This document shows positions 13,424-56,230 of a stretch of DNA of 56,430 nucleotides, in pieces; within the stretch, counting starts at the first letter, position 1, and each line of letters opens with the position of its first letter. Both the position numbers and the translations under genes were made by a program. The DNA is from Candidatus Omnitrophota bacterium (GTDB lineage Bacteria; Omnitrophota; Gorgyraeia; Duberdicusellales; 4484-171), in contig JAGLUN010000011.1 in assembly GCA_023134705.1 (NCBI GenBank), forward strand, positions 1-56,430, given 5' to 3'. The notes below the pieces were generated by a model. The model was given only the letters and a program-made list of their open reading frames with translations, was not told the DNA's origin and made no database searches.

Positions 13424-14149
13424 ATGGCTCCTATAAAAAAACTGATTCAAAAGACTTCCTCAATATTTCTAAAAAACAAACTCTGGAATCTAACAACCAC
13501 TCCGGAATATAATTACGACAAAAGATTCCTATATAGGCTTCAAATAATTGATAATATTTTGCTCAATAAAGCTTATGGGGATGTGATAGAAATTGGCTGC
13601 GGAGATGGACGGTTTCTTAGTAAATTAGAATCCATTAAAGGAATAAACTCTGCATGGGGAATCAATATATCCATAAAGGGAATAAAAACGGCCCGAAAAA
13701 AAGGACTAAATGTAATAAGAGCTGATGGCGAACGGCTGCCTTTTAAGGATGAAACTTTCGATACAGTAATGAGCGCGAATGGCGCTCCCGTAGCAATGAA
13801 ATGGGAATTGTTATTACCAGAAGTTTACAGAATTCTCAAACCAGGCGGGTATTTCGCTTTTCATACTTACAACAAATTCCCTATAGAAAAAATAATTAAG
13901 AATAAAATAATGTGTTTCTTGAAAATTGCTAATGCCCCATTTTTGATTAACGGTGGAGTTAAAAACATAAAAAAATTTAAAGCTATCTGTTTAAAATTCG
14001 GCTTCGAAGTTATTTCACTGCATACTCTTCTCCCTCTCCCATTTTTCCCTTACGGGATATTATTGAAAGGAAGTTCCTTCAGCCAAATTCATGTGAATCT
14101 TATTGGAATCCTTAGAAAAAAACAGGCCAAAACTAAGTCACCGCAATAA
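13424..14149 (+). CDS. Class I SAM-dependent methyltransferase
   Basis: VIEIGCGDGRF (motif I), followed by FDTVMS and LKPGGYF motifs. Confidence 0.75.
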   Translation: MAPIKKLIQKTSSIFLKNKLWNLTTTPEYNYDKRFLYRLQIIDNILLNKAYGDVIEIGCGDGRFLSKLESIKGINSAWGINISIKGIKTARKKGLNVIRADGERLPFKDETFDTVMSANGAPVAMKWELLLPEVYRILKPGGYFAFHTYNKFPIEKIIKNKIMCFLKIANAPFLINGGVKNIKKFKAICLKFGFEVISLHTLLPLPFFPYGILLKGSSFSQIHVNLIGILRKKQAKTKSPQ

Positions 14150-14629
14150 AAATATCCAGAAGAACTTATCAAAAAGATTGGCCAACCTATCTATTTTTTC
14201 TCCCGGAAAGATACTTTTTCTTATTAAATATATAAACAAGTAGCTGTAATTTATAATTTTTATATTTCTACACTTTGGCTTCTGCCATTTCTCCTTATTT
14301 ACCTTTTGTCCCTTATTATCAGATACCGCTGTTACTTTACCGATCAAATCTTTGCCTTCAAACATTCCTCCTACCAAAGCATTGTCACCTTTATGCAAAA
14401 AATACGTTTTATTCAAAAATTTCATTCTTCCAACAATTCTATGGCAAGTAAGAATGTTTTGACCAAAGCCGACAATATCTCCGATTTCTACATCATTTTC
14501 AGTTACCGGCTGCATTTTCACCATCCATCCGTGTTTAAGCACTGGATACATACTTATCCCCGAAATAACTTCCCAGCCTCCTTTGGCCGTCAAATAAAAA
14601 TTATACATCTCATTCTTTTTGTCCATCAT
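14138..14629 (-). CDS. S24/S26-family serine peptidase-like protein (signal-peptidase I / SipW-like)
   Basis: GISMYPVL (Ser nucleophile motif), IGDIVGF, CHRIVG and KGDN boxes. It overlaps the upstream rSAM/SPASM gene by 20 nt. A paralog lies at 39666-40175. Confidence 0.6.
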   Translation of the reverse strand: MMDKKNEMYNFYLTAKGGWEVISGISMYPVLKHGWMVKMQPVTENDVEIGDIVGFGQNILTCHRIVGRMKFLNKTYFLHKGDNALVGGMFEGKDLIGKVTAVSDNKGQKVNKEKWQKPKCRNIKIINYSYLFIYLIRKSIFPGEKIDRLANLFDKFFWIFLLR

Positions 14630-15737
14630 TCACCTCAGAATAAATTTCTTTTCTAATCTTTGCCAAACGACAGGCCTCAGGCAATTTTGACAGAAATGAA
14701 CCTTGCTCTAAACGGGCAATTCCCGGACAATAAAAACAATAAGAAAGTAATTCACATTTTCTGCATTCAGATAAATCTTTTACCCGCAAAGATCTAATAT
14801 AATTAAGCTCTGGATGATATTGCCAGACATCCGATAAATTATGCCCATTTAAACAATTCTTTTTTAATCTAATTTGCGCGCAGGGATTTAATTCTCCAGA
14901 AGGAGTAATATTACAACCTGATCGCCCCGCTCCGCATAATATGTCGTTCTTCTTTACTTTTCCTGGTTTATATTCTTTTCCCACAGATCTAAACTCTTCC
15001 TTTTCTTCTTTAATATATTTCTTTAACTGTTCATCAGTCAATCTGTATTGTAAAGGTCTTTTGTTTCCGTCATCACAAGGAGAAACTAAAAAATTACCCC
15101 CGATCCCCCTCCATTTTACACCCAGTTCTTTCTTTACAAATCTCTTCAATTTCCAGACTTGGCTTACATTTTGTTTTGTTAATGTCATTTTAACTAAGAC
15201 TTCGACATTCCTTTCTCTTAATAACCTGATCGCCTTAACAGTTTTATCAAATGAATTTTTGACCCGAGTCATTTCCTCATGCATATCCTTAAATCCGCAT
15301 AAACTTATTTCGACAGAAATTGGCTTTAAATTTCCAAGTTTATCAGCAATGCTTTCATTTACAAGAGTCGCGTTTGTAAATATTCGCAAAGCAAATTTTA
15401 ATTTTCGCGCGTAATCAGCAATCTCAAAAAAATCTTTCCTTATCAAAGGTTCTCCTCCGGAAAATGTTAGATAAAAGCAGCCCGCTTCTTTTAATTGACG
15501 GAGGATACCAAAAACCTTCTCTTTCTCTAATTCTTTCTTTTTATTTTTAGTAATATAGCAGTATAAGCAATTCAAATTACATCTATAGGTAAGTTCAAAA
15601 AGACAATGCAGGGGGATCAATTTTTCAGCAGCGTTTTTAAGCAGATAAGTCTGGAGGTCAGCTTGCTTCATTTTTGCGGATTTTTTGGAGAATATAGATA
15701 TCTCAGAATTTAAGAAAAATGATGGAGGTGTAACCAC
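14610..15737 (-). CDS. Radical SAM/SPASM-domain peptide maturase (locus I)
   Basis: ELTYRCNLNCLYCY (CxxxCxxC), FSGGEPL, and a C-terminal SPASM pattern CGAGRSGCNITPSGELNPC...CRKCELLSYCFYCPG. The GTG at 15737 is probably too far upstream. ATG 15671 (MKQADL) would remove the overlap with the 46-aa ORF. Confidence 0.85.
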   Translation of the reverse strand: MVTPPSFFLNSEISIFSKKSAKMKQADLQTYLLKNAAEKLIPLHCLFELTYRCNLNCLYCYITKNKKKELEKEKVFGILRQLKEAGCFYLTFSGGEPLIRKDFFEIADYARKLKFALRIFTNATLVNESIADKLGNLKPISVEISLCGFKDMHEEMTRVKNSFDKTVKAIRLLRERNVEVLVKMTLTKQNVSQVWKLKRFVKKELGVKWRGIGGNFLVSPCDDGNKRPLQYRLTDEQLKKYIKEEKEEFRSVGKEYKPGKVKKNDILCGAGRSGCNITPSGELNPCAQIRLKKNCLNGHNLSDVWQYHPELNYIRSLRVKDLSECRKCELLSYCFYCPGIARLEQGSFLSKLPEACRLAKIRKEIYSEVNDGQKE

Positions 15738-15850
15738 CCACAGCCGCCACCTGTTTTATAACAAGCCACCATCCCTTTTCGTTCTTTTACTACTTCTTCT
15801 TTGAATTTTGGATCAATCCATTTCTTTCTCTTATTTCGCGCCTTTTTCAC
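15710..15850 (-). CDS. Candidate RiPP precursor peptide (46 aa, below the ORF-track cutoff)
   Basis: GTG start 8 nt after AAGGAG. Translation: MKKARNKRKKWIDPKFKEEVVKERKGMVACYKTGGGCGWLHLHHFS. It lies between the PqqD-like gene and the rSAM/SPASM gene. It has a basic N-terminus, a Cys/Gly-rich C-terminus and a C-terminal Ser like the other precursors here. Confidence 0.45.
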   Translation of the reverse strand: MKKARNKRKKWIDPKFKEEVVKERKGMVACYKTGGGCGWLHLHHFS

Positions 15851-15878
15851 CTTCCATTCTCCTTTAGTTTTAATATTA

Positions 15879-16175
15879 CTATGCAACCGTATATGTTATT
15901 AAACCCTTCTTTTCAAATTTATTCATCAACTTTGTGATTTTTTTACAAACATCCTCTTCTGAAACTTCATATTCACTTAAAAGCTTATCAATTACATCTT
16001 TTACCTTATTTTTTCCATCAATTAATTCCCAAATCATAGCTGCTGTTTCATTCAAAATCAATATTTTCTCTCTTTCGTCAGGAGCACCATCAAACTGTAA
16101 GATTACAACCTCCCTGTCTATCCGCCGCCAAGCAAGGTCTTCATTACTCTTAGGAATTTTGTTTAAATCTTTCAT
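15879..16175 (-). CDS. PqqD-family protein (RiPP recognition element)
   Basis: 98 aa. W.RIDREVVIL....ILILNETAAMIWELIDGKNKVKDVIDKLLSEYEV..EDV is the typical PqqD pattern. Confidence 0.8.
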   Translation of the reverse strand: MKDLNKIPKSNEDLAWRRIDREVVILQFDGAPDEREKILILNETAAMIWELIDGKNKVKDVIDKLLSEYEVSEEDVCKKITKLMNKFEKKGLITYTVA

Positions 16176-17067
16176 CTAAATACCCCCATATATCTAAATC
16201 CGGCCTAAATTCCAAAATATACGCATCTATATTATTTCCTGCGTCAAAAGCTATTTCAAACACTTTTTTAAAAGTCTTTTTATCTTCGTCTAAGTACATA
16301 CTATCTTCTAAAATTCGCAAAGCCATCTCTTTCTTATTCATTTTTCTGCCATAATTCCTATTAGCTTTCTTTAAGAAAAACACCTCCTTAACTTCTCCAA
16401 ATTCCGGAGAGGTCTGCGGCATTTTCCCATGCCAAGGATTACCAAAAACGATATATTTATCCTTAACTTTTCTTAAAATTATTCTTTCATCATTAAGAAC
16501 CGCGAAATTCTTTAAAAGCGCGAGTTTAGCCATCGTAGATTTACCTCCTCCCGATGGAGCGATACATACAAAAATCCTTTTATTTATCTTTATTGCCGAA
16601 GCGTGAAGAAAAATCCCTTTAAACTGCGGAAGGAGTAAAGTGTATAATAGGTCGGAGGACAAATGCGTAAAAACCTCTCGCCAATGCTCTTTACTCCAAA
16701 GCTTTATCTTTGAAAAATCGGAAGAGAATTCCATCAAAGAGTTTCTTGTGTGAAAAAAATGCAAATATCTCTTATTATTTCTTTCTCCATAATCCCATGC
16801 GTCTGTCTTTAAAAAAAAATTAACCTTAGAGGCTATCTGAGGATATTTTGATTTTACCTCTAGCAGAACTTCATAGTTATTATTTAACGGAATAATGAAA
16901 TCTTTATAATAATTTTGAAGGTTCTCTTTTATTCTTGAATCGTCTAAAACCCATTTTATTTTTAATTTCCCTAAATTTGTGATAAACGCGCTATTTTTTT
17001 TAAAACTACTCACTTTTTTTCCTGTCTGTCTTAAGACAAACTTCCGCCCTTTTGTTTTTTCTCCCAT
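16150..17067 (-). CDS. HPr-kinase-related P-loop kinase-like protein
   Basis: LHASAI...FVCIAPSGGGKSTMAKLAL P-loop, LNDERIILRK and GNPWHG. These match the 29097-30062 and 53949-54884 paralogs. Confidence 0.7.
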   Translation of the reverse strand: MGEKTKGRKFVLRQTGKKVSSFKKNSAFITNLGKLKIKWVLDDSRIKENLQNYYKDFIIPLNNNYEVLLEVKSKYPQIASKVNFFLKTDAWDYGERNNKRYLHFFHTRNSLMEFSSDFSKIKLWSKEHWREVFTHLSSDLLYTLLLPQFKGIFLHASAIKINKRIFVCIAPSGGGKSTMAKLALLKNFAVLNDERIILRKVKDKYIVFGNPWHGKMPQTSPEFGEVKEVFFLKKANRNYGRKMNKKEMALRILEDSMYLDEDKKTFKKVFEIAFDAGNNIDAYILEFRPDLDIWGYLDERFKQNS

Positions 17068-17156: not shown

Positions 17157-18023
17157 TTAAATGGGGGGCTCGGGTTGATAAACTAATCGATCAATTCTCT
17201 TCTTAACTAATTCGCGCTTACCAGGAACTTTTCTATTTTCAAAAAACAACGTATTGCCCTTTTGGTATATTATGACTGGCATATTTTTGTTTCTCAATTC
17301 AAGGATATATTTTTTGCATTCTTTTTTACAAAAGGAAATGCCGCAAAAAAATCTTTTTTTCGCACGAAAAGGATTTGCTGAACAAAGACGAGTAGTAGTA
17401 ATATATCCATAAGGCACATATAAAGATACAGATAAGCTATGTTTGGGAATTCTAAGATTCATCCCTTGAAATAAATTATCTATTTCAACCCTCGAGATTC
17501 GATAACTTTTCAAAAAATTCCGGATAATAGGAACATTTATATTTGCCTCTTTGAAAAACGAAAGTAAGGTACCAGGACTTTTTTGTGGGAAAACAAAAAC
17601 ATATTCGTTACGCTTCTTGAAAAATGTGGTTCTTTGGGGCTTTGCCTGCATTAAATCCATTATCCGTGGATCCCTTTTTTGTTTAGTTAACAAGCGCCCT
17701 AAAACAGGTTGTAGCGTGTGATACTCCTCGTTTATTAAATCCAATATTCCATAGTCATTAATTATGATTTCACAATTTATCTTATTATTCCGCAACCACA
17801 AAAATAACTTCTCCAAATTCTCTATCCCCCTGCGTGTCACATAAGGCGTTACCAATGAAAAACTTAATTTATTTCTATCACAATAGCTCACAATTTTTCT
17901 TAATTCATTTAGTCGTGGGATTAATCTTTCGCAAAATTCACTCCCAAAATATAAACGCTTATATTTTGAAGTAACCAACTTTAAATTTGAGATATCAGCG
18001 ATAAATATAGCTTTTTCTATCAT
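17157..18023 (-). CDS. U32-family protein, UbiV-like
   Basis: YFGSEFCERLIP resembles the UbiV YLGE.VC.KR motif. A C-terminal Cys cluster, RLCSANPFRAKKRFFCGISFCKKEC, could bind 4Fe-4S. A 4-nt overlap with the upstream U32 gene suggests a pair. Confidence 0.6.
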   Translation of the reverse strand: MIEKAIFIADISNLKLVTSKYKRLYFGSEFCERLIPRLNELRKIVSYCDRNKLSFSLVTPYVTRRGIENLEKLFLWLRNNKINCEIIINDYGILDLINEEYHTLQPVLGRLLTKQKRDPRIMDLMQAKPQRTTFFKKRNEYVFVFPQKSPGTLLSFFKEANINVPIIRNFLKSYRISRVEIDNLFQGMNLRIPKHSLSVSLYVPYGYITTTRLCSANPFRAKKRFFCGISFCKKECKKYILELRNKNMPVIIYQKGNTLFFENRKVPGKRELVKKRIDRLVYQPEPPI

Positions 18024-19078
18024 TTATGTAATGTTTTATGGAAAACTGAGGGATAATAACAGGAAAAGCCAGAACATTTATCATATTTATAAGTGTCACA
18101 GTATAGCTTTTGAGTTTTTTTTATAAACTTTTCTTTTGTAGAATTATCTTCTTTCTTTAGAATATCTAAAACTGCTCGAATAAACTTTGTATCTCTGATT
18201 TTAGATTCTATTTTCGCGCCTCTCTCAACAATTTTAAGTCCTCTAATATTCATTTTATTGAAATCGAATATAGCGCAGGCGCCGCATTCTTTCCGATTTT
18301 CTCTATCATGTTTTATTTTTTTAGTGCCGGACGGGGTTTGTCTTGTTATTCTTTTGCCTCGATTATCGAATATCCTTTTTGAATACCTTAAGACACAAGC
18401 GCATCCTCCATGACTTCCAGCATAAAATTTGGTGAATTTTATCTTTTTATTTTTGAGATCGATTTCCGGAGCAATCGCCTTTTTGTCAAAAGACATTCCA
18501 TGGTAAAAGGTGCAAAACCCATCGACATTCGGACATAATGTATTAAGGATAAAAACCTCCAGATGTACCTTACCCGAAATTCTTCGTGAAATATCCTCAA
18601 TTTCGTTTATTGTTAAATGACGCGGCAAAATTATACGAGAAGCGCCAAATTTTTTGTAGAAAATAGCTGTTTTTGAATTAAAGGTTGTTCCTCCAGCCCC
18701 TATATGGATTTCTTTAAAAATTTTCATCCTTTGTAACATCAGCAATAAACCTATATCCGCTATAATGAGGCCATCCGCTTTTACGTCCTTCAGTTTCTTA
18801 ATTATCTTTCGAATTAAAGGGTATTGCTGCTGCACGTATAATCCATTCATTGTCACAAACACCCGTACATTTTCTCTATGCGCAAGTTGTATCGCATATT
18901 GCAAATCTGAAAATTTGGAAAAATTAGCGGCATAACCTTCCCTTCTGTTGAGCGTATCAAACGCACTATACCTATTCTCCCATTCTTCAGGTATAATCCC
19001 GCAATAAAGCTCATCTGCTCCTGCCTCTATGAGAGGCATCACTTCTTCCTTCTTTGAAAATGGGGATAGGATTTTCAT
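18020..19078 (-). CDS. U32-family protein, UbiU-like
   Basis: The MKILSPF...IEAGADELYCG N-terminus, VFVTMN, ADGLIIADIGLL, LKIVERGAK and Cys motifs CPNVDGFC / GGCAC / CGAC are typical of peptidase-U32 family members. Confidence 0.7.
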   Translation of the reverse strand: MKILSPFSKKEEVMPLIEAGADELYCGIIPEEWENRYSAFDTLNRREGYAANFSKFSDLQYAIQLAHRENVRVFVTMNGLYVQQQYPLIRKIIKKLKDVKADGLIIADIGLLLMLQRMKIFKEIHIGAGGTTFNSKTAIFYKKFGASRIILPRHLTINEIEDISRRISGKVHLEVFILNTLCPNVDGFCTFYHGMSFDKKAIAPEIDLKNKKIKFTKFYAGSHGGCACVLRYSKRIFDNRGKRITRQTPSGTKKIKHDRENRKECGACAIFDFNKMNIRGLKIVERGAKIESKIRDTKFIRAVLDILKKEDNSTKEKFIKKTQKLYCDTYKYDKCSGFSCYYPSVFHKTLHK

Positions 19079-28716: not shown

Positions 28717-28753
28717 ATAACCAAATTATCAAATCTCCAAAAAACAAAAGGGC

Positions 28754-29017: not shown

Positions 29018-29037
29018 AATTTGATACCTCCCTTCTT

Positions 29038-29135
29038 GTATCACGTATCAAGTATCAAGTATCAAGTATCAAGTATCAGGTATCACGTTTTACCTGTTAC
29101 TTGTTACCTGCGGCGTGTTGCGCATTCGCGCTTAC
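29038..29135. repeat. Heptanucleotide tandem-repeat array (GTATCAN x7, then degenerate NTGTTAC-type heptamers)
   Basis: Read directly: gtatcac, gtatcaa x4, gtatcag, gtatcac, gttttac, ctgttac, ttgttac, ctgcggc, gtgttgc, gcattcg, cgcttac. The array spans the HprK-like stop and encodes its last ~11 codons. Confidence 0.9.
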
Positions 29136-30062: not shown

Positions 30063-30196
30063 TGCTTCTCCTTTTAAATTAGTTGCCTTCGGCAATAATT
30101 TATCATATGAAAACCTGCGGTTTTCAAACTTTCCCCTAAAATCCTTAAGATTGAAATTCCTAAACATGAACTTAGTGCGCCTAACGGCGCGGGCTT

Positions 30197-45268: not shown

Positions 45269-45531
45269 CTTTCTCTTCCTCTAAACATCCCGCATTCTGC
45301 TATCTTTATTTTTATAGCTGATTATATCATAATGTAAACCGTTCTTTTTCGCTATTTTTTAAAATATTGCTTGATTTAAACATCATAATTATATATATTT
45401 ACGTTAGGGGAATAGAAGAACATTGATAGAATAAAACCGATGCGCAAGACTTTAAATAAATTTAACCCAAAAATTGCATTACGGCAAAAGCCATAAATGT
45501 ACTGGAACCGTTTATTTTTCAGCTAAATCTA

Positions 45532-50690: not shown

Positions 50691-50713
50691 ATATTTCCAT
50701 CATCTTTTTTAAG

Positions 50714-51538
50714 TCAAAACTCAAATAGAGACTCATCAGGCAGAGCAAAACTGAGGGAACGAAACTCTAATTTACTTACCAATTCTCCATCGTAATATAA
50801 CAATTTTGAAACAGGTACTTCTATACCGTTAGCTTTGAGTGTTTTATCACCATGAAAAACTTCTATGAATTTATCGTTATATCCACGATCTACTTCTTTT
50901 TTAACACGACGGAAGGTTCCTGTATCAACAAATAATTTTGTTTTAGTTTTTTTAGACTTTCTATATTCCAGAACATAGCACTCTCTTCCTTTTACAGTTT
51001 GTTTTCCGATAAGATCCATCCAGTCTTTTATACTATTCCAATGCTTAATTTGGGTAGGTCCCCGAATCCTCTGAAACCTTCTAAGTGTTTCCTCCAAAAA
51101 GAGAAACATTTCTGAGGGTGTTCTCTCTACCTCTTTACCATCCTTCAGGTATTTGATGGTACCTGCATTATATATCAATTGGAAAACTTCTTCTTTCCCT
51201 CCTCTATTTACTTCTACATCAAATCGGAACTTGTCAGGCAATCTAATATAGTGCTTACACATCTGTGTTCCATCAAGAGAGTAATCTTCTATTAAAATGA
51301 TAGAACTCCATCCCCTGATGGCCTGCCATTTTTCCAGACCTCCATAGGAATCTATCATTTTAGAAATAATAACACTTGCATCTAAACCCTCTGTCCGTTT
51401 CCCAGTTTTTACTGCGACCTTTCCTCCAGTCTTCTTGCTTGAATTAAAAATAGTGGCATCTGCACACTCCAGAGATAAAATTACTATAAGAGCAAATACC
51501 ATAACCTCAATTAAAAAAATCGCCTTTCTCTTACACAT
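50714..51538 (-). CDS. LolA-like secreted protein, paralog 2
   Basis: The start is set at ATG 51538 (MCKRKAIFLIEVMVFALIV...). The track TTG start at 51559 reads through a G10 tract. It also has GGLEKWQAI, IGKQTVKGRECYVLEY and ...ALPDESLFEF. Confidence 0.5.
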   Translation of the reverse strand: MCKRKAIFLIEVMVFALIVILSLECADATIFNSSKKTGGKVAVKTGKRTEGLDASVIISKMIDSYGGLEKWQAIRGWSSIILIEDYSLDGTQMCKHYIRLPDKFRFDVEVNRGGKEEVFQLIYNAGTIKYLKDGKEVERTPSEMFLFLEETLRRFQRIRGPTQIKHWNSIKDWMDLIGKQTVKGRECYVLEYRKSKKTKTKLFVDTGTFRRVKKEVDRGYNDKFIEVFHGDKTLKANGIEVPVSKLLYYDGELVSKLEFRSLSFALPDESLFEF

Positions 51539-51547
51539 TCTTTCTCT

Positions 51548-51557
51548 CCCCCCCCCC
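51548..51557. repeat. Homopolymeric C10 (G10 on the coding strand) tract just upstream of the paralog 2 start
   Basis: Counted directly: three C at 51548-51550 plus seven C at 51551-51557. Confidence 0.9.
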
Positions 51558-51612
51558 AACTGCTTCTACCATTCTTGTAGTAATCTCCTTTATTTCTACC
51601 ATCTTTTTTAAA

Positions 51613-52530
51613 TCAAAACTCAAATAGAGACTCATCAGGCAGAGCAAAACTGAGGGAGCGAAACTCTAATTTAGCCACAAATTCTTTATCATTATAAACC
51701 CATCTTATAACAGGCACTTCCATACCATTCTCCTTAAGTGTCTGCGCACTAAGAAGAACCTCTATGAATTTACCGTTATATCCCTTATCCACTTCTAGTT
51801 TAACACCACGAAAGGTTTTTGTGTCAACAAATATTCTTTGTTTAGTATCTTCTGATTTTCCATATTCCAGAACATAACACTCACTTCCTTCTATAGTCTG
51901 TCTTCCGATAAGATTTATCTCGTTTTTTATACGATTAAAATATTTAAATTGCGCAGGTGCCTGAAGCCTCTGATATCTTTTAAGTGTTTTCTCCAGAAAG
52001 AAAAACATTTCTGAAGATGTTCGCTCTGCCTCTTTACCATCTTTCAGGTATTTGATGGTACCTGCATTATATATTAATTGAAAGACTTCTTTTTTCCCTC
52101 CTCTGTTTACCTCCGCATCAAACCGGAACTTGTCAGGCAATCTAATATAGTGCTTACACATCAATATTTCATCACGATAGTGCTTTTTTATTAAAATAAT
52201 AGAGCTCCATCCTTCTATAGCCTGCCATTTCTCCAAACCCCCACAGACATCTATCATTTTAGAAATAATAACACTTGGCTCTAAACCCTCTGACTCTTTT
52301 CCGGATAAAGAAGAAGATTCTTCTTCTATCCTTTTTATTTCATCAAAATAGTAAGTTAATAGGAGACCTTCAAAATCCACTTTTATATACTGATCTGTTT
52401 TTTCTACAATTTTTCCTTCGACCTTTCTGCCTGATTTTAAAATAATGGTTTCAGCATAAGCCGAAGATAAATTCATTATAAAAGCAAACAGTATAACTTG
52501 AGTTAAAAAAATAACTTTTCTTTTACGCAT
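51613..52530 (-). CDS. LolA-like secreted protein, paralog 3, with an extra small N-terminal domain
   Basis: Signal peptide ...LSSAYA-ET, then IILKSGRKVEGKIVEKTDQYIKVDF. The remainder is highly similar to paralog 2. Confidence 0.5.
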   Translation of the reverse strand: MRKRKVIFLTQVILFAFIMNLSSAYAETIILKSGRKVEGKIVEKTDQYIKVDFEGLLLTYYFDEIKRIEEESSSLSGKESEGLEPSVIISKMIDVCGGLEKWQAIEGWSSIILIKKHYRDEILMCKHYIRLPDKFRFDAEVNRGGKKEVFQLIYNAGTIKYLKDGKEAERTSSEMFFFLEKTLKRYQRLQAPAQFKYFNRIKNEINLIGRQTIEGSECYVLEYGKSEDTKQRIFVDTKTFRGVKLEVDKGYNGKFIEVLLSAQTLKENGMEVPVIRWVYNDKEFVAKLEFRSLSFALPDESLFEF

Positions 52531-52557: not shown

Positions 52558-53670
52558 TTAACTACAAACCTTAAAAGCATCCGGGGGTAACTGTTCAAAC
52601 AATTTCCAACATTGCGGGTCAGGCGCGTCTAACTTTCCAAAATAACCATAACTTACACAGCGCGCACCTCCTCGGCACAATTCAAAATATTCACAGTTCC
52701 TGCAAACAGAAGATAAATTCTCGGGGTTTCTTATCCGGCTAAGGAGCTCTGAGGTAAACCATATTTCAAGCAGACTCTTTTTCAACACATTTCCCAGAAC
52801 AATAGGGAGTCGCCTGCAAGGCAATACGTCGCCGTTTGGCAATACGGTTAATATGCGGTTACTCAATACCCCGCATAAAGGGATTGTACGGTTATCGTAT
52901 TGTGATACTAATTCTTCTTCCTGAAAAAAGACGCCGTCTTCGCAACAAAGAGAATTAAAAGTGGGTTGTTTAGTATTAGAGCCGCAAGCGTAATTTTCCT
53001 TTGCCAAAGCATGGCGCAGCCTGTAAAAATCCCGCTGTTCCAAAGGGCTTATCATATCATCTATTAATCTTTTTTGGTTTTTGCCTATAGGAACCAGCCG
53101 CCGAATACCTATTCTCCTTACTTCTAACTTTATAAAAAAATCTATAAGTTGAGGAATTTCTTTGAGGTTATATTTTGCTAAAGTAACGGAAACCAATACT
53201 GGTATATCGTTTTTATTTAAAATTTCTATCGTATTCACTATCTGCTCAAAAGTGCCTTTGCCCCGAATCCTATCGTTTACGCTCTCCATTCCTTCTACGC
53301 TAAGCTGTACAGCATCTACTCCTAATGTTTTCAGCATTTCTACTTTTTCATCATTCAGCAGTGAACCGTTAGTTAAAATTTTAAGGCGGTACCGATCATT
53401 ATATTTATAAATTCTTTTCAGAAAAACTATAAAATCATCTCTTAAGAAAACCTCTCCCCCGGTAAGATTTAATCTTGCAATCTGAGGAGGAATTTTAAAG
53501 GTATCCAGAAATTGGATGAATTGGAGGAAAATCCGGTAAAGCTGGTCAATCGATAGTTCGTTGTAACCTCGGTCTCTATAACAATGTGAACAGTTCCAGT
53601 TACACCGTTCGGTAATATGCCACTGCAGGGAAAAACCGTTTTTTAAACTTAGTTCGCGTTTACTTTTCAT
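52558..53670 (-). CDS. Radical SAM/SPASM maturase (locus III, distal)
   Basis: HITERCNWNCSHCY, LTGGEVF, and SPASM CGVLSNRILTVLPNGDVLPC...CRNCEYFELCRGGARC. Confidence 0.85.
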   Translation of the reverse strand: MKSKRELSLKNGFSLQWHITERCNWNCSHCYRDRGYNELSIDQLYRIFLQFIQFLDTFKIPPQIARLNLTGGEVFLRDDFIVFLKRIYKYNDRYRLKILTNGSLLNDEKVEMLKTLGVDAVQLSVEGMESVNDRIRGKGTFEQIVNTIEILNKNDIPVLVSVTLAKYNLKEIPQLIDFFIKLEVRRIGIRRLVPIGKNQKRLIDDMISPLEQRDFYRLRHALAKENYACGSNTKQPTFNSLCCEDGVFFQEEELVSQYDNRTIPLCGVLSNRILTVLPNGDVLPCRRLPIVLGNVLKKSLLEIWFTSELLSRIRNPENLSSVCRNCEYFELCRGGARCVSYGYFGKLDAPDPQCWKLFEQLPPDAFKVCS

Positions 53671-53938
53671 GCAACTTAATGAATCCTTTCTGGGAAAATT
53701 CTTTCATAAGGCTAACCACATCTTCACGGATTATTTTATATTCAATGTCAAAATGTTTAACAAGGTATTTAACAATAGACTCAACCGTTTCCCCGTGCTG
53801 TATTAGGTGCCATATTTGGCTAGCCGTGGAGTTCAGGTTAAAAAACTCCGCTGTTTTTTTATCTAAAATTGTTACTTCGCCTTCAATCTTTCTCCAGGCA
53901 ACTTTTTCTTTATCGATTTCGTATACTAATTCCGCCAT
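53660..53938 (-). CDS. PqqD-family protein (locus III)
   Basis: VAWRKIEGEVTILDKKT..FFNLNSTASQIWHLIQHGETVESIVKYLVKHFD. Confidence 0.8.
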   Translation of the reverse strand: MAELVYEIDKEKVAWRKIEGEVTILDKKTAEFFNLNSTASQIWHLIQHGETVESIVKYLVKHFDIEYKIIREDVVSLMKEFSQKGFIKLHEK

Positions 53939-53948: not shown

Positions 53949-54884
53949 TTAAAATACTTCTGCGTTTTTCAATATTGCGTAGAGCCGTGCTGGATTATCT
54001 CGCACATCTCTTCCGCATTCCATTCTAAAAAATGAGCAGGTATCAATTAACAGATTGCTCCAGGTATTATAAAAATTTTTCATATAATCGAGAGCTGATT
54101 CTAAATAACTCGGATTTAAGAATTGCCTTGAGCGTTTTAAAACACTCTTTATTCCCTCTCTGGACAAAGGACAAATCAGGGTAGTATCAGAAGGAGCTAT
54201 GGAAATGAGAATTATTGACTTTAAGAGAGCTCCGGCATTCATACAATTATCAACCCCAAACATCTGAAAAAGATTCATATCGTTGTTTCGGCCCACCTGA
54301 TTAAAAATGGAAAAGGCCCAGATTCCGCTGTTTACCGATTTTAAAAATACCTGGTCATCAGCAATCCATTTAAAACCTTGCTGCAATAAATTTTTTAAAA
54401 CAGTGCTCTTGCCCTGGCTAGAAGGAGCAAGAAACATATAGGCTTCATTTTTGTCATTGGCTAAGCATGAACTGTGAAAAGAATAAATATCACTGTATAG
54501 CAAAAGTAAATAAATCGCTCCTTTTATAAATCTAATTGGGAGAAGAACCGGTCTCGCCCAATGATAAGGAGAAATAAAAAACTGTATTTGCTTTTTATCG
54601 ATATCAATTATCGCTTTTGAAGGATTATTAATGCCCCAACAGGCAATAATTCGATTCTTATCTGGATATTTATAATGCCATGGCCCCCAAATTGAGATAT
54701 TTCGGTCCATCTTCGGCAGAGAGAAAGAATGCTGTTCCAATTGGGAAATATCAAAAAAATAAAGAGCGATATCGGCTTTTTCCTTTTTAGGGGTTATTCG
54801 CCATTTAAAAAATCCTAAACCAGAGACGATTTTTTGCAAGAAGGAATTACTCTTTTCTATTTGAATATAGAAGGAAAAATTCAC
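53949..54884 (-). CDS. HPr-kinase-related P-loop kinase-like protein (locus III)
   Basis: FHSSCL...AYMFLAPSSQGKSTVLKNLL P-loop and IADDQVFLK. Confidence 0.65.
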   Translation of the reverse strand: MNFSFYIQIEKSNSFLQKIVSGLGFFKWRITPKKEKADIALYFFDISQLEQHSFSLPKMDRNISIWGPWHYKYPDKNRIIACWGINNPSKAIIDIDKKQIQFFISPYHWARPVLLPIRFIKGAIYLLLLYSDIYSFHSSCLANDKNEAYMFLAPSSQGKSTVLKNLLQQGFKWIADDQVFLKSVNSGIWAFSIFNQVGRNNDMNLFQMFGVDNCMNAGALLKSIILISIAPSDTTLICPLSREGIKSVLKRSRQFLNPSYLESALDYMKNFYNTWSNLLIDTCSFFRMECGRDVRDNPARLYAILKNAEVF

Positions 54885-54987
54885 TTTTTAGTACCCGGCT
54901 ATTTCGTATAGCAAGAATTTTTTTTGTTTAGTTTAATTAATAAAATTGATTGTCTGATAAAAATATGACTCGTCCTTATTTCTGCGA

Positions 54988-55158
54988 TTAACTACACCCA
55001 CAAGTGCAACATGTACACCCGGAATCAAATTCCTTTTTTTCCGGTTCAGGAATGATTATCTTTTCCATAGTTGGTTTCACATATTTTTTCTCCTGGTTAA
55101 CATGTTCCTCCTGAATACCAGCATCTCTTCTTTCTTTATCTCTCTTATGCATATGCAT
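54988..55158 (-). CDS. Cys-rich precursor peptide (56 aa from ATG 55158)
   Basis: SD AGGAGGGG lies 5 nt before the ATG. Translation: MHMHKRDKERRDAGIQEEHVNQEKKYVKPTMEKIIIPEPEKKEFDSGCTCCTCGCS. It lies between an rSAM/SPASM gene and the kinase-like gene. Confidence 0.75.
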   Translation of the reverse strand: MHMHKRDKERRDAGIQEEHVNQEKKYVKPTMEKIIIPEPEKKEFDSGCTCCTCGCS

Positions 55159-55183
55159 ATTTACCCCTCCTACCAAGCCTTTT

Positions 55184-56230
55184 TCAGTTTCTTACCGGGC
55201 AGCCTTCATCTACTCCGTTAAGGCTGCCAGTATCCATATAAGCCTTAGCCCGACACCCGCCACGACAAAGCTCAAAAAATCTGCATTCTCTGCACCCAGG
55301 GTTATCAACAGATATTTGGCTGAACATCTCGTTAATACGCTGACGCACCACTCCCACAGATTGCCTTTTAACGTTACCCACTGGAGGCAAAGGATGAGTT
55401 AAGTAAGGAAAGAACGGGCACGGGTAAACATCACCATTAGGAAATAGACAAAATTTCCCTTTTTCAACGCACTTTTTTAAACGCTGAAAGGCTTCATGGA
55501 ATATTTCATAATAATTTTCCCACAACCAGGAATTTTTGCAAGCATAAAGGTAGTTCACAACAAGAGGAGAAAATCCAATCTCAGGAAACCTTTTTTCCTT
55601 TTGATTTTTTAAAATATTCACGAGTTTCTCCATCCCTTCTTCGAATTGTTTAAAAGAAAGGCGTAAATCATGCCTTCCATTCACGGGAAGGGTAATTGAA
55701 AAAACAACTTTTCTTATGCCTAAATTTTGAGCCATAATATGCATATCCCCTATTTGAAAAATATTGGCTGGAGTTAGCGTAATAACCATGGTGCAGGGAA
55801 TAGCATATTCCCGGATAAGTTTAACTTTCCATAATAAATTTTCAAAGTATCCTTTGCCTCTCATGTTATCCTGTACTTCACCGATACCTTCACAGGAAAC
55901 TTGAATAGCACTAACCCCGGCCTTTTTCAATAAGCTCAATTTTTCTCTGTCTAAAAGCAGTGCGTTAGTTAAAACATTTACTTTCTTGTTTAAAGAAGCA
56001 GCGTGCCTGGTAATTTCTATAACCTTCTCCAGCTCCAGTAAAGGTTCTCCACCTAAAAGCCTGATGATATCAATGTCGGTTAATTCATCAATTACACGAC
56101 AGAACTCTTCTCCAGATAACTTTTCCTCCGAAGAATACCCTGCGTTAGTCCTGAAACAGTGTGTGCATGATAAATTGCACTCTTGAGTTATATAAAAACT
56201 AACTAATTTTGTGTTAATTAACCGCCTCAT
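55184..56230 (-). CDS. Radical SAM/SPASM maturase (locus III, proximal)
   Basis: YITQECNLSCTHCF, LLGGEPL, and SPASM ...LFPNGDVYPC...GCRECRFFELCRGGCRAKAY. Confidence 0.85.
   Translation of the reverse strand: MRRLINTKLVSFYITQECNLSCTHCFRTNAGYSSEEKLSGEEFCRVIDELTDIDIIRLLGGEPLLELEKVIEITRHAASLNKKVNVLTNALLLDREKLSLLKKAGVSAIQVSCEGIGEVQDNMRGKGYFENLLWKVKLIREYAIPCTMVITLTPANIFQIGDMHIMAQNLGIRKVVFSITLPVNGRHDLRLSFKQFEEGMEKLVNILKNQKEKRFPEIGFSPLVVNYLYACKNSWLWENYYEIFHEAFQRLKKCVEKGKFCLFPNGDVYPCPFFPYLTHPLPPVGNVKRQSVGVVRQRINEMFSQISVDNPGCRECRFFELCRGGCRAKAYMDTGSLNGVDEGCPVRN

Follow-up and report, generated by a model that had tools for sequence, protein, structure and literature searches.

Locus layout and gene content

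The question raised by this region is what might be made by three neighbouring loci, each of which combines an ScmC/HprK-related P-loop protein (K), a PqqD protein, one to three radical SAM (rSAM)/SPASM enzymes and a small open reading frame (ORF) ending in Ser. The loci lie between 14 and 56 kb of the window, a 56,430 nt stretch (contig JAGLUN010000011.1, GCA_023134705.1) from an uncultivated Candidatus Omnitrophota bacterium (Table 1). All members of the K/PqqD/rSAM trio noted in the initial annotation were located, with one, three and two rSAM genes accompanying K1, K2 and K3, respectively, and the trio genes of all three loci are on the minus strand. A triad of GT2, PMT_2 and NTP_transf_5 genes is likewise present in three paralogous copies, one per locus; neither this triad nor the MsbA-like exporter of locus 2 had been remarked on in the initial annotation. 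Profile scans of nearly all window ORFs of at least 100 aa matched no lasso cyclase family, in agreement with the first reading of the region, and support its proposal of a RiPP-like class separate from lasso peptides. We consider that the region comprises three paralogous biosynthetic gene clusters of common layout for ribosomally made peptides modified after translation (RiPPs). This reading, including the biosynthesis proposed below, is given a probability of about 0.6. The cluster type is widespread among environmental bacteria.

Table 1. Features of the three loci (window coordinates; SD, Shine-Dalgarno sequence)
Locus	Feature	Position	Strand	Evidence or remark
1	Signal-peptidase-I-like (archaeal/ER type), candidate leader peptidase	14138-14629	-	TIGR02228 2.9e-10
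1	rSAM/SPASM enzyme	14610-15737	-	Pfam Radical_SAM 3.3e-26
1	Precursor, 46 aa	15710-15850	-	GTG start 15850; MKKARNKRKKWIDPKFKEEVVKERKGMVACYKTGGGCGWLHLHHFS
1	PqqD-like RiPP recognition protein	15879-16175	-	Pfam PqqD 1.1e-15
1	K1, HprK-related/ScmC-type P-loop protein, putative peptide Ser kinase	16150-17067	-	
1	288-aa partner of U32 gene	17157-18023	-	
1	Peptidase U32 family protein (UbiU/TrhP-like)	18020-19078	-	Pfam Peptidase_U32 1.1e-30
1	NTP_transf_5 nucleotidyltransferase	20031-21275	-	Pfam PF14907 7.8e-45
1	PMT_2 membrane (GT-C type) glycosyltransferase	21244-22722	-	Pfam PMT_2 3e-19
1	GT2 glycosyltransferase (ArnC/polyprenyl-phosphate hexose transferase-like)	22719-23405	-	Glycos_transf_2 4.7e-25
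2	MsbA-like ABC exporter	26479-28236	-	ABC_membrane 7.2e-43, ABC_tran
2	Precursor a, 87 aa	28754-29017	-	Ends ...NLTAS; database protein P0147; GGAGG SD
2	K2, Pfam ScmC family P-loop protein, putative peptide Ser kinase	29097-30062	-	
2	Precursor b, 84 aa	30598-30852	-	Ends ...GSQSSS; database gene call P0121; GGAGG SD
2	Remnant of duplicated K gene, N- and C-terminal pieces	30918-31267	-	
2	rSAM/SPASM enzyme a	31284-32399	-	Radical_SAM 7.4e-19; C-terminal CKNCSIRDLCYNC motif
2	rSAM/SPASM enzyme b	32448-33560	-	Radical_SAM 3.2e-27; C-terminal CDRCEFEPYCKWC motif
2	rSAM/SPASM enzyme c	33979-35127	-	Radical_SAM 3.8e-23
2	Truncated precursor copy, 38 aa	35311-35427	-	Intact leader MGRKPKFRPRITWIRLNPKQAVLFCSC; ends ...GRLI; GGAGG SD
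2	PqqD-like RiPP recognition protein	36627-36932	-	Pfam PqqD 1e-11
2	UPF0489 (peptide-arginase-like, FlmR/OhkR family) N-terminal domain with TPR repeats	36980-38515	-	Pfam UPF0489 1.8e-08, TPR
2	Archaeal-type signal peptidase I, candidate leader peptidase	39666-40175	-	TIGR02228 1e-17
2	NTP_transf_5 nucleotidyltransferase	40713-42005	-	Pfam PF14907 4.4e-45
2	PMT_2 membrane glycosyltransferase	41884-43377	-	Pfam PMT_2 3.5e-20
2	GT2 glycosyltransferase	43374-44060	-	Pfam Glycos_transf_2 6.1e-28
3	GT2, companion	44567-45268	-	Pfam match
3	PMT_2, companion	45532-47178	+	Pfam match
3	NTP_transf_5, companion	47144-48352	+	Pfam match
3	Polysacc_synt flippase-like, companion	48362-49897	+	Pfam match
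3	Three paralogous LolA-like lipoprotein genes	49908-52530	-	LolA_like 3.9e-4, under cut-off
3	rSAM/SPASM enzyme a	52558-53670	-	Radical_SAM 2.6e-26, SPASM 6.6e-11
3	PqqD-like RiPP recognition protein	53660-53938	-	Pfam PqqD 1.5e-13
3	K3, divergent HprK-related/ScmC-type P-loop protein	53949-54884	-	
3	Precursor, 56 aa	54988-55158	-	ATG 55158; ends ...DSGCTCCTCGCS; AGGAGG SD
3	rSAM/SPASM enzyme b	55184-56230	-	Radical_SAM 8.2e-22, SPASM 4.9e-05

Precursor peptides and their C-terminal Ser

Sequence conservation supports the small ORFs as genuine genes. The four intact translations end as first read, in ...HLHHFS (locus 1), ...NLTAS and ...GSQSSS (locus 2) and ...CTCGCS (locus 3). The terminal Ser of the locus 1 precursor is its sole Ser, and a homologue in L010 (L numbers denote loci on other contigs) lies between PqqD and rSAM and terminates in ...CVSNHFS. 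In locus 2, precursors a and b have leader DNA of ~97% identity and unrelated cores; a 38-aa truncated precursor similar to the window's copy is also found in L012. A database search with precursor b returned 88 homologues, and the non-redundant family comprises 109 members (89 database proteins, including the window's two, and 20 from fetched loci), all within K2-type clusters, often at two to four copies per locus, with a conserved leader and a hypervariable, Cys-containing core of 32-76 aa. The locus 3 family is conserved across three independent syntenic contigs, its orthologues in L005/L006, L007 and L008 keeping KYVKPxMEKVxIPxPExKDF[DH][SA]GCTCCTCGCS; in the L008 peptide no Ser occurs apart from the terminal one. 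In other contigs, all three peptide families accompany orthologous clusters.

All five small ORFs have a GGAGG, AGGAGG or AAGGAG sequence 7-9 nt upstream of the likely start (AAGGAG, 8 nt upstream of the GTG, in locus 1). The contrast originally drawn with SD-less maturase genes stands for most of the latter as a tendency, not an absolute rule, given AAGGA-type exceptions at K2 (Met36) and PqqD3; weaker matches precede rSAM3a and the locus 1 peptidase.

Ser-ended small ORFs beside homologous trios elsewhere, as anticipated in the initial annotation, proved to be the norm. Locus 2 family members end in Ser in 103 of 109 cases and in Thr in four (a hydroxyl in 98%), and a set of 80 diverse metagenomic K loci contained 30 small ORFs with a leader, of which 28 terminate in Ser, compared with 9.9% of 3358 control small ORFs. 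The locus 2 family termini draw on the full set of six Ser codons and on each of the three stop codons, which argues for selection at the amino-acid level. A terminal Ser (rarely Thr) is near-invariant in precursors of K, PqqD and rSAM clusters from many lineages. Because the locus 2 family cores are themselves Ser-rich, other Ser residues within them could be targets; the core share of Ser is 12.5%, against the 103 of 109 at the terminus. Where the K gene is fragmented (L061/L063), the adjoining precursor ends in ...STCCF, a natural loss. Exceptions are L089, L099, L100 and L082 (rSAM and K), whose precursors lack the terminal Ser though K appears intact, and three K and PqqD loci without rSAM, whose candidate precursors end in Ala or Asn.

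Kinase-like and radical SAM proteins

Profile searches recovered the families first assigned to the trio for PqqD and Radical_SAM, and weakly for K1 and K2. Single-sequence family assignment of the K proteins is weak: K1 matched HprK_rel_A/B and ScmC at E ~1e-3, K2 matched HprK_rel_B (5e-6), ScmC (9e-6) and Hpr_kinase_C (7e-4), K3 gave no family match, and the curated cut-offs of all named HprK-related models are far above these scores. The GeoRSP label suggested for the trio was rejected, as all GeoRSP and SynChlorMet NCBIfam scores fell far under their cut-offs; the nearest label is Pfam ScmC. At the profile level homology is solid, the K3 family aligning with the K1 family in hhalign at 98.9% probability (E 3e-17) at pairwise identities among K1-K3 of 18-31%. 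When K1 and 100 homologues were aligned (n=101), HprK_rel_B was matched by 79, ScmC by 67 and HprK_rel_A by 51. The AF2 model of K1 (pLDDT 91.4) found ATP-PEPCK (E 1e-7) and HPrK/P (E 4e-5 to 4e-4) as best PDB matches in Foldseek.

Candidate catalytic residues of the kinase-like proteins are kept on alignment, as the kinase proposal had presupposed. H155 and the P-loop Lys K176 of K1 are invariant and D193 occurs in at least 90% of homologues; in most of 150 K1 homologues among the matches listed the P-loop is followed by L[NS]D[DE], and in most of 79 metagenomic K proteins by N/S-D-D/E, and K3 keeps the His, P-loop and ADD motifs. The modelled fold and these alignments indicate that the K proteins are kinase-like, with a PEPCK/HPr-kinase fold and His, P-loop and Asp-Asp/Glu motifs. 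K2 (ORF 29097-30167; start at 30062 according to database gene call P0001, 321 aa) has at least 500 homologues, the best 120 of which share 66-80% identity, nearly all with PF27840 (named ScmC in Pfam), and come, where the organism is named, from Omnitrophota alone. Its duplicated remnant is related to K2 by direct repeats D2 (96%, 273 nt) and D3 (88%), and the remnant ORFs, of 44 and 68 aa, correspond to the ends of K2.

All six rSAM translations carry a C-terminal Cx2Cx5Cx2-5C cluster motif; only rSAM3a and rSAM3b pass the Pfam SPASM cut-off, so that the SPASM assignment was not recovered by Pfam in four of the six. The locus 1 enzyme matched SPASM peptide maturases over its full length, orthologues of locus 2 enzyme c (55-69% identity) occur in most K2-type loci, and the best match of rSAM3b is a PapB-type ranthipeptide maturase (rSAM_PapB 2.8e-29, under cut-off).

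Accessory genes

Protease genes had been described as absent, a claim contradicted by the signal-peptidase-I-like genes of loci 1 and 2 (36% identity). The locus 2 protein exceeds the TIGR02228 cut-off of 51.85 bits (64.5 bits; SipW 2.5e-11; SMWP, CHRLV and GDN motifs) and the locus 1 protein scores below it (40.3 bits; SMYP, CHRIV and GDN motifs). Homologues of the locus 2 NTP_transf_5 protein lie beside, or are fused with, the peptidase in other K2-type clusters, and such fusions, with either protein first, are present in 7 distinct loci (8 contigs). The locus 1 NTP_transf_5 protein shares 50% and 41% identity with the other window copies, and the locus 1 PMT_2 protein, whose ORF overlaps both neighbours, shares 65% with locus 2 and 41% with locus 3. 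The GT2 proteins of loci 1 and 2 are 97% identical (locus 1: NCBIfam undecaprenyl-phosphate L-Ara4FN transferase 5e-22, under cut-off). In the other loci examined, no GT2/PMT_2 triad turned up near K, and the triads may have a role in envelope glycan synthesis unconnected with the peptides. NTP_transf_5 and Polysacc_synt genes are syntenic with the locus 3-type cluster in L005-L007, and the same three LolA-like genes follow it in L005, L006 and L007.

The U32 gene (NCBIfam UbiU 1.5e-23 and TrhP 1.5e-19, each under cut-off) recurs in K2-type clusters. Its 288-aa partner, which has no Pfam or NCBIfam match and does not resemble the U32 protein by BLASTP, adjoins it in L003, L012, L015, L022, L026 and L083. 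The UPF0489-TPR gene (NCBIfam peptide arginase 2.5e-10, under cut-off) lies beside PqqD in L003, L020, L023, L029, L030, L059, L066 and L073.

Relation to known pathways and proposed biosynthesis

HprK-like kinase logic outside lasso peptides is no longer undescribed, because linear polyphosphorylated peptides (LPP) of Bacillota, a lasso-independent RiPP class with an HprK-like kinase, were reported in 2026 (PMC13381572). The initial statement that no product or precursor was described is outdated as regards the kinase logic; for the rSAM-coupled version, we found no paper on the system, its precursors or its product. The LPP core domains, PqqD, NTP_transf_5, TIGR02228 and TIGR02203 besides the kinase (PMC13381572), are all present in the window loci (the locus 2 exporter matching TIGR02203 MsbA at 6.4e-90, under cut-off) and recur alongside K and rSAM in other loci. 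The LPP "HprK kinase" class comprises TIGR04249 (67), TIGR04352 (65) and TIGR04355 (11) (PMC13381572), so that proven Ser kinases bear the same family labels as the models matched by K1, K2 and the K1 family. The residue that LppK polyphosphorylates is a single conserved Ser, Ser3 of the core and not the C-terminus (PMC13381572), whereas the near-invariant Ser of the window precursors is C-terminal; HprK-like RiPP kinases are therefore not always terminal-Ser-directed. LppK also rejected Thr (PMC13381572), the terminal residue of four locus 2 family precursors. As a precedent, PadeK and PsmK phosphorylate a C-terminal Ser, PsmN then adding hexoses to the phosphate, and PsmK requires D158/D159 (PMC6993621), the equivalent of the Asp-Asp/Glu downstream of the P-loop in K proteins.

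On balance we favour the view that the loci represent an rSAM-cross-linked variant of the LPP theme, and infer its chemical steps, their order and the modified residues as follows. A small precursor with a basic, Pro-containing leader, a following hydrophobic stretch and a Cys-containing core would be bound at its leader (KPKFKPxITRVKLNPEQAVL in locus 2) by the discrete PqqD-type protein, and one to three rSAM/SPASM enzymes would cross-link the core at conserved Cys, most likely as thioethers. The ScmC/HprK-related enzyme would then use ATP to place phosphate on the side chain of the C-terminal Ser, which is probably phosphorylated by K and perhaps also glycosylated: NTP_transf_5 would decorate the Ser phosphate, possibly with a sugar, like PsmN in pseudomycoidin, and in this genome the adjoining GT2/PMT_2 pair may join in. 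The candidate signal-peptidase-like enzyme would remove the leader, in locus 2 plausibly by cutting after AVL-[T/S/A], which agrees with the -3/-1 rule. Export would fall to the MsbA-like ABC transporter, a gene for which also lies at one cluster end in L001, L016, L020, L021, L023 and L026.

Three gene clusters with a common trio

Coding in the 14-56 kb part of the window lies almost wholly on the minus strand, and the nearest relatives of the window proteins come from Candidatus Omnitrophota metagenome-assembled genomes. As the initial annotation had proposed, a trio composed of an HprK-related (ScmC-type) P-loop protein, a PqqD-like RiPP recognition protein and 1-3 radical SAM (rSAM)/SPASM genes is present at each of three loci, and we found all three trios where they had been placed (see table; the P-loop proteins of loci 1, 2 and 3 are termed K1, K2 and K3). 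HMM searches made the PqqD assignments (Pfam PqqD, E 1e-11 to 1e-15) and the rSAM assignments (Pfam Radical_SAM, E 1e-19 to 1e-27) secure in all three loci. A Cx2Cx5Cx2-5C motif, read from the translations, terminates all six rSAM proteins, of which only rSAM3a and rSAM3b score above the Pfam SPASM cut-off.

Positions of the trios, candidate precursors, accessory genes and other features in the window and in related loci (L numbers)
Feature	Location	Position	Strand	Remarks
K1	Locus 1	16150-17067	minus	
PqqD	Locus 1	15879-16175	minus	
rSAM	Locus 1	14610-15737	minus	
K2	Locus 2	29097-30167	minus	database protein P0001, 321 aa, equivalent to start at 30062
PqqD	Locus 2	36627-36932	minus	
rSAM (three)	Locus 2	31284-32399; 32448-33560; 33979-35127	minus	
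K3	Locus 3	53949-54884	minus	
PqqD	Locus 3	53660-53938	minus	
rSAM	Locus 3	52558-53670	minus	
rSAM	Locus 3	55184-56230	minus	best match PapB
Family-2 precursors (intact)	Locus 2	28754-29017; 30598-30852		
Family-2 precursor (truncated)	Locus 2	35311-35427		
GT2/PMT_2/NTP_transf_5 triads	Window	22719-20031; 44060-40713; 44567-48352		
Signal-peptidase-I-like	Window	39666-40175		TIGR02228 64.5 bits, above cut-off of 51.85
Signal-peptidase-I-like	Window	14138-14629		TIGR02228 40.3 bits, below cut-off of 51.85
MsbA-like exporter	Locus 2	26479-28236		
ABC-2 type transporter	Near locus 1	23704-25527		
NTP_transf_5/peptidase fusion	L001	3523-5421		
NTP_transf_5/peptidase fusion	L019	132-1202		
NTP_transf_5/peptidase fusion	L026	4937-6547		
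NTP_transf_5/peptidase fusion	L024	3581-5182		
NTP_transf_5/peptidase fusion	L041	1886-3355		
NTP_transf_5/peptidase fusion	L043	5657-7894		
NTP_transf_5/peptidase fusion	L105	6592-8271		
Peptidase-U32 protein and partner	Window	17157-19078		
UPF0489/TPR protein	Window	36980-38515		
58-aa ORF	Locus 2	30197-30373		
Duplicated units compared	Locus 2	28700-29330; 30544-31151		
Decayed K copy	Locus 2	30918-31267		
RT C-terminal fragment	Locus 2	28315-28716		RVT_1 4e-10
Avd-like 23S-IVP gene	Locus 2	33579-33953		
Other mobile/selfish-looking inserts	Locus 2	35876-36614; 38661-39539		
Tandem repeats (examples)	Locus 2	29038-29085; 30873-30909; 31216-31286; 31601-31640; 32651-32704; 32825-32892; 33559-33590; 33957-33999; 35151-35215; 38088-38115		
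Candidate precursors of rSAM-less loci	L091; L095; L098	1662-1847; 3702-3884; 454-624		
B12-binding radical SAM protein	Window	3167-5539		
1143-aa ABC ATPase	Window	5523-8954		
ABC-2 permease	Window	8954-9736		
Flavin amine-oxidase-like protein	Window	9793-11358		
Radical SAM protein	Window	11676-12986		

The K proteins belong to the HPr kinase/phosphatase superfamily

As single sequences, K1 matches HprK_rel_A/B and ScmC weakly (E ~1e-3), K2 matches HprK_rel_B (5e-6), ScmC (9e-6) and Hpr_kinase_C (7e-4), and K3 matches no family in profile scans. K2 is a member of Pfam ScmC: PF27840 is precomputed on it and on nearly all of the 120 homologues listed, the best of more than 500, which are 66-80% identical to it. 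A search with K1 matched 5231 representatives in the library at E up to 1e-3, and when it was aligned with 100 homologues HprK_rel_B was matched by 79 of the 101 sequences, ScmC by 67, HprK_rel_A by 51, the true HPr(Ser) kinase model TIGR00679 by 20 and PEP carboxykinase (PEPCK) by 13. The family profile of K3 matches that of K1 with an hhalign probability of 98.9% (E 3e-17).

A sequence search of the PDB with the K1 profile was swamped by generic P-loop matches, with HPr kinase and PEPCK appearing only at E ~0.01, and a search by fold was therefore required. The AlphaFold model of K1 is confident (pLDDT 91.4, pTM 0.88); its best PDB matches by Foldseek are ATP-dependent PEPCKs (E 1e-7, TM 0.42-0.49 on the query), and the HPr kinase/phosphatases 1knx and 1ko7 are also matched (E 4e-5 to 4e-4). 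HPr kinase/phosphatase and PEPCK have a common P-loop fold. Within the K1 family H155 and the Walker-A K176 are invariant, and D193, 17 residues past the Walker-A Lys, occurs in at least 90% of members, mostly within L[NS]D[DE]. Fold, His, Walker A and Asp-Asp motif together place these proteins in the HPr kinase/phosphatase superfamily (PEPCK-like P-loop fold), and a lack of conserved catalytic residues, which the initial annotation held would speak against kinases, is not seen in the alignment, where the His, P-loop Lys and Asp are kept. In the pseudomycoidin kinase PsmK the D158/D159 pair, which corresponds to the Asp motif of the K family, is needed for phosphorylation (PMC6993621).

Candidate precursors end in serine

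All five small ORFs of the three loci are preceded by a strong SD, as first noted from the sequence, and the leaders in the window are KPKFKPxITRVKLNPEQAVL, KKWIDPKFKEEVVKER and KYVKPxMEKVxIP. The locus-2 leader, MGRKPKF[KR]PxITRVKLNPEQAVL, is common to two intact peptides and a truncated copy and is carried by 89 database proteins, the window's own two counted; a further 20 peptides from scanned fetched loci, always inside K2-type (locus-2-like) clusters and often in 2-4 copies, bring this family (family 2) to 109 non-redundant members. Their cores are hypervariable, Gly/Ser/Thr-rich and 32-76 aa long, with Cys at core position 2 in 109/109 and at position 4 in 97/109, and 3-4 Cys in all. The last residue is Ser in 103 members, Thr in four, Ala in one and Leu in one, so that 98% keep a hydroxyl; the cores as a whole are 12.5% Ser. 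Each of the six Ser codons occurs at this end, as does each of the three stop codons, hence the constraint lies at the amino-acid and not the DNA level. None of the five small peptides matches an NCBIfam family at E up to 1, none of the 89 family-2 homologues has a precomputed Pfam domain, and promoter and terminator scans around the precursors gave no signal above shuffles.

The other two loci have relatives at the same positions. For locus 1, the relative L010 encodes a K 42% identical to K1, then PqqD, a 57-aa ORF whose product ends ...CVSNHFS and would be 54 aa long if begun at the second Met, and rSAM. For locus 3, orthologous clusters (K 61-73% identical to K3) keep the position of a 54-55 aa ORF whose tail, GCTCCTCGCS, does not vary. 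The window's locus-1 peptide and the locus-3 peptide of L008 have no Ser other than the last residue.

A core so invariant beside K proteins so diverged could mean that the product of locus 3, at least, is a fixed small cofactor or metal-binding molecule built from the GCTCCTCGCS tail, with K as an accessory. PQQ and mycofactocin, which are made from peptide scaffolds by systems that are also of PqqD plus rSAM/SPASM design, would be the models, and three LolA-like lipoprotein genes instead of an ABC exporter follow the locus-3 cluster. We consider this highly improbable, as locus 2 applies the same logic to cores that are hypervariable and present in several copies, and the genes seen beside locus 3 included none of the redox partners typical of cofactor systems.

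The terminal-serine rule across K loci

The comparative search suggested by the initial annotation used a small K alignment against metagenome contigs and yielded 80 diverse loci, in which families were counted within ~5 kb of K. K itself was counted in 79 of the 80, rSAM in 51, PqqD in 41, signal-peptidase-like proteins in 25, MsbA-like ABC transporters in 21 and NTP_transf_5 in 20, all lower bounds because many of the contigs are short. Another small K alignment gave only L010, and K1 alone as query found no relatives among genome contigs. Of 66 same-strand small ORFs with an SD in the metagenomic clusters, 36 end in Ser, and those with a basic Pro-containing leader, (E/Q)xAVL-like residues and Cys do so in 28 of 30 (of the other two, one is a PqqD protein that happens to fit the pattern), versus 9.9% of control small ORFs (n=3358). 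The rule extends to unrelated leader families (...CALPSS, ...CASGSSSS, ...CKNTSCSTIGS, ...CPTGFPRGS, ...CVNRLQGS). The earlier remark that intact precursors end in Ser is confirmed and considerably strengthened.

Exceptions comprise 98-99 aa peptides ending ...GLGVI or ...GFGF (L089, L099, L100), a peptide ending ...HNA (L082), a second precursor copy ending in Thr (L031), and candidate precursors ending in Ala or Asn in three K plus PqqD loci that lack rSAM. In L061/L063 the precursors end ...STCCF and the K gene is broken into fragments.

Genes, linkage, precursors and terminal Ser are direct observations, and these loci are very probably genuine RiPP-type clusters with the precursors named here. 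The ORFs are short and few homologues are known for the families of loci 1 and 3, which might have spoken for chance ORFs with coincidental Ser endings; the comparative data refute that reading, given peptide sequences kept at syntenic positions across contigs, the SD before every ORF, and the frequency of Ser endings in family 2 and among leader-bearing ORFs relative to background.

The rSAM-less loci L091, L095 and L098 carry a different peptide family, with a leader (E/T)YSxP...(I/V)xLDNEIxLxL and a core ...PEY(F/N)..DP(F/Y); none of these peptides ends in Ser, and they may form a separate kinase-associated RiPP group.

Accessory genes

One of three paralogous triads of GT2 (228-233 aa), PMT_2 (~495-550 aa) and NTP_transf_5 (~400-430 aa) genes, with 40-97% mutual identity, lies beside each locus. 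The initial annotation reported no protease genes, but the window encodes two archaeal-type signal-peptidase-I-like proteins, one above and one below the TIGR02228 cut-off and both with SMxP, HR and GDN motifs; none turned up for locus 3 in the window. An MsbA-like exporter gene ends locus 2, and locus 1 is without an MsbA-type exporter and has an ABC-2 type transporter nearby. The typical order of K2-type clusters in other Omnitrophota is, with variations, NTP_transf_5, peptidase, optional UPF0489/TPR, PqqD, precursor, three rSAM, K, precursor, optional U32 pair and ABC. Seven distinct loci (eight contigs) have one ORF that joins NTP_transf_5 to the signal-peptidase-like domain, either of the two coming first, and in L001 this fusion gene immediately precedes a precursor gene; the recurrence of the fusion suggests that maturation includes a step coupled to the membrane.

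In L033 and L037 PqqD is fused to rSAM. A peptidase-U32 protein (UbiU/TrhP-like) with a Cys-rich 288-aa partner of no assigned family is encoded within K-type clusters in the window and in L003, L012, L015, L022, L026 and L083; UbiU and TrhP are O2-independent hydroxylases, and the pair may hydroxylate the peptide. We rejected the partner as a second U32 subunit because it has no BLASTP similarity to the U32 protein. An N-terminal UPF0489/peptide-arginase-like (FlmR/OhkR) domain is fused to TPR repeats in a protein whose gene adjoins PqqD in numerous K2-type clusters, also in L003, L020, L023, L029, L030, L059, L066 and L073, which hints at Arg-to-ornithine conversion in the peptides.

Relation to phosphorylated peptides and the probable target of the putative kinase

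Linear polyphosphorylated peptides (LPP) are a lasso-independent family found in Bacillota, with clusters within polysaccharide loci, in which the kinase LppK polyphosphorylates core Ser3 and the peptidase LppS removes the leader (Popov et al., 2026; PMC13381572). The supplementary table of that study lists PqqD (151), NTP_transf_5 (140), TIGR02228 (126), TIGR02203 (99) and 'HprK kinase' (152; TIGR04249 67, TIGR04352 65, TIGR04355 11, TIGR00679 8) domains, the kinase models being those that the K proteins match here, and 'radical SAM' is absent from the text of the paper (PMC13381572). The likeness covers the discrete PqqD-type RRE, the HprK-like kinase (TIGR04249/04352/04355), NTP_transf_5, the TIGR02228 peptidase, the MsbA-like exporter, a conserved N-terminal leader before a variable C-terminal part, 1-3 precursor genes per cluster and a setting among glycosyltransferase and polysaccharide genes. 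Locus 2 holds the full set of PqqD, kinase, NTP_transf_5 and MsbA-like exporter, locus 1 holds all but the exporter, and the set recurs with K in other loci. Unlike LPP, which are linear products with no cross-linking enzyme, reported to be restricted to Bacillota, our clusters have 1-3 integral rSAM/SPASM enzymes and conserved Cys in the cores, lack the leader motif YxxPxVLxHQxIxFETxxS (including FETxxS), conserve a C-terminal Ser instead of core Ser3, and occur in Omnitrophota and other uncultivated lineages.

In pseudomycoidin and paeninodin an HprK-like kinase phosphorylates the C-terminal Ser, and PsmN, an 'uncharacterised NTP transferase', adds hexoses to the phosphate (PMC6993621). Those lasso peptides share with our loci a PqqD-like recognition protein, ABC exporter, HprK-like kinase, Ser-ended precursor and NTP_transf_5-type enzyme, and differ in the presumed rSAM cross-linking and the signal-peptidase-like candidate leader protease found here. 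No lasso cyclase (asparagine-synthase-like) or B2 transglutaminase-like cysteine protease was present among the ~55 window proteins scanned. The proposal of a different RiPP class thus stands in being distinct from lasso peptides, and fails in its supposed lack of proteases and its GeoRSP label (see below). Given these common families, we therefore regard the window loci as the LPP/paeninodin secondary-modification toolkit combined with rSAM/SPASM maturases.

The chemistry, step order and modified site that we infer are as follows: the PqqD protein would bind the leader, rSAM enzymes would cross-link the conserved Cys, K would phosphorylate the terminal Ser, NTP_transf_5 would modify the phosphate, the signal-peptidase-like enzyme would remove the leader, and the ABC pump would export the product. 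We give this full reading, a RiPP pathway with rSAM cross-links and a K-phosphorylated terminal Ser, a probability of about 0.6. Phosphorylation of the terminal Ser is plausible by analogy, with LPP now a closer precedent, and is argued for by the lasso peptides, the near-universal hydroxyl in family 2, the sole-Ser peptides and the joint loss of K and terminal Ser in L061/L063; counting against it are Ser3 of LPP, the rSAM-less loci without a terminal Ser and the few intact-K loci without one.

PMT_2 (protein O-mannosyltransferase-like) enzymes O-glycosylate Ser/Thr, and each window locus has its own triad with such a gene. The peptides might accordingly be rSAM-modified while the terminal hydroxyl serves something other than K-dependent phosphorylation (O-glycosylation by PMT_2 with a GT2-made polyprenyl-phosphate sugar, nucleotidylation by NTP_transf_5, rSAM chemistry or a role in export), K acting on a sugar, a lipid or another residue. 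The only recurrent replacement of Ser is Thr, yet LppK did not accept Thr, and the terminal Ser follows rSAM plus K clusters and not K alone. We nevertheless judge this unlikely: PMT_2 homologues were detected in 0/109 other loci, where K is always present, experiments on this kinase group in RiPPs have established no role but the phosphorylation of Ser, with NTP_transf_5 modifying the resulting phosphate, and in L061/L063 K and the terminal Ser are lost together.

Alternatively, K could target another conserved hydroxyl residue near the leader-core junction, such as the residue after AVL in family 2 (Thr 82, Ser 17, Ala 6; n=109), leaving the C-terminal Ser as a recognition or stability element. 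LppK does act on core Ser3, and that phosphorylation comes before efficient leader cleavage, but the position is mostly Thr and is Ala, Leu, Gln or Phe in 10/109, other leader families have Gly, Asn, Val and similar there, and the locus-1 and L008 locus-3 peptides offer no Ser but the last, which makes such a target very unlikely.

A rather unlikely extension of the phospho-serine pathway is that the hypervariable cross-linked peptides, with their several copies, are not free antibiotics and would instead be tethered, through a C-terminal-Ser phosphodiester, to a sugar, glycan or polyprenyl carrier as a variable Omnitrophota coat. K, NTP_transf_5, the GT2/GT-C pair and the fused or adjacent membrane signal peptidase would make the link, a bacterial side-chain analogue of C-terminal glycolipid anchoring, and nano-sized Omnitrophota might use the coat in host or prey interaction.

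Other systems resemble the loci in part. The SynChlorMet cassette (ScmC/D/E/F, TIGR04248-04251, PF27840), for which we know of no described precursor or product, has the same four-part logic of a ScmC-type P-loop protein, a PqqD relative and rSAM/SPASM proteins; equivalog membership was rejected, every NCBIfam score being far below its cut-off (ScmC 15.8-25.2 vs 125, ScmD 19.8-28.8 vs 100, ScmE 73-134 vs 400, ScmF 58-78 vs 400). GeoRSP (TIGR04302/04303), the label first suggested, likewise pairs a PqqD-family chaperone with a radical SAM/SPASM protein, but our proteins are not members (PqqD model 23-39 bits vs 100, rSAM model 56-126 bits vs 400). With sactipeptides and ranthipeptides (SCIFF, PapB) the loci share SPASM-type rSAM enzymes and Cys-rich short cores, although scores fall well below cut-offs and the known systems are without the kinase, NTP_transf_5, signal-peptidase set and terminal-Ser rule. 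The SPASM-type enzymes and conserved Cys would presumably yield Cys thioether links in the cores. Prochlorosin-type families also combine a conserved leader, hypervariable core and many copies, using LanM enzymes and other chemistry; the sharp leader/core boundary in paralogous copies and several precursor genes per cluster recur in family 2, and we know of no conserved C-terminal residue in prochlorosin-type families.

Our literature search found no description of an rSAM-coupled phospho-peptide toolkit, only general BGC surveys for Omnitrophota RiPPs with radical SAM, and nothing relevant on GeoRSP, SynChlorMet/ScmC or HprK with radical SAM/PqqD. The LPP/paeninodin phospho-peptide toolkit is known; its joining with presumed rSAM cross-linking in uncultivated phyla, and the precursor rule of a basic Pro-containing leader, Cys-bearing core and terminal Ser, are new. 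If the phospho-serine pathway is correct, the ScmC/HprK-related, PqqD and rSAM sets, long catalogued with no substrate to their name, gain precursor families and a tie to the phosphorylated lasso peptides and the LPP family of 2026, which alone among their relatives have been characterised. Phospho- or phosphoglyco-peptide products would then reach beyond Bacillota to Omnitrophota, Saganbacteria and further uncultivated lineages, and a combined radical-SAM and phosphorylation RiPP design would be defined; the peptides are short, some with a single Ser, and are directly testable.

Duplication and inserts in locus 2

A 1.8-kb unit of K and precursor has been duplicated in locus 2, and the upstream K copy has decayed to fragments. 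Between the units the K end, intergenic region and leader are ~97% identical up to the AVL[ST]C codons (~90-97% with the 3' flank counted), the core is essentially unalignable, and identity returns at the last Ser codon and runs on for ~45 nt past the stop. A boundary this sharp and cassette-like suggests that the core was replaced by recombination or is under strong diversifying selection; the duplicates look like a case of cassette-style core exchange, and the hypervariable cores with such boundaries point to diversifying selection. An RT fragment and an Avd-like gene close by led us to consider a diversity-generating retroelement, which was rejected since no template/variable repeat matches either core; no RT was found in the 29 related loci examined.

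These two and further inserts in locus 2 look mobile or selfish, with DUF5674 and GIY-YIG genes and a nucleotidyltransferase/HepT toxin-antitoxin pair among them; L016 has a copy of the 23S-rRNA-IVP/Avd-like gene (89.5% protein identity) at another cluster position. Tandem repeats of 7-8 nt, in 3-7 copies each, are scattered through the locus (28700-38120): a GTATCAA/GTATCAG array immediately precedes the SD of each intact precursor (~7 vs ~5 copies in the duplicates), and others fall in frame within the TPR gene and two of the rSAM genes (a and b). The stretch is more GC-rich (0.38-0.40 vs ~0.33). Between the second intact precursor (...GSQSSS) and K2 lies an ORF of 58 aa that encodes two zinc-ribbon-like CxxC pairs and ends in Asn, with no leader motif and no homologue in the other loci. 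Upstream of the three loci, at 3167-12986, lie further candidate biosynthetic genes, among them a B12-binding radical SAM protein and a flavin amine-oxidase-like protein.
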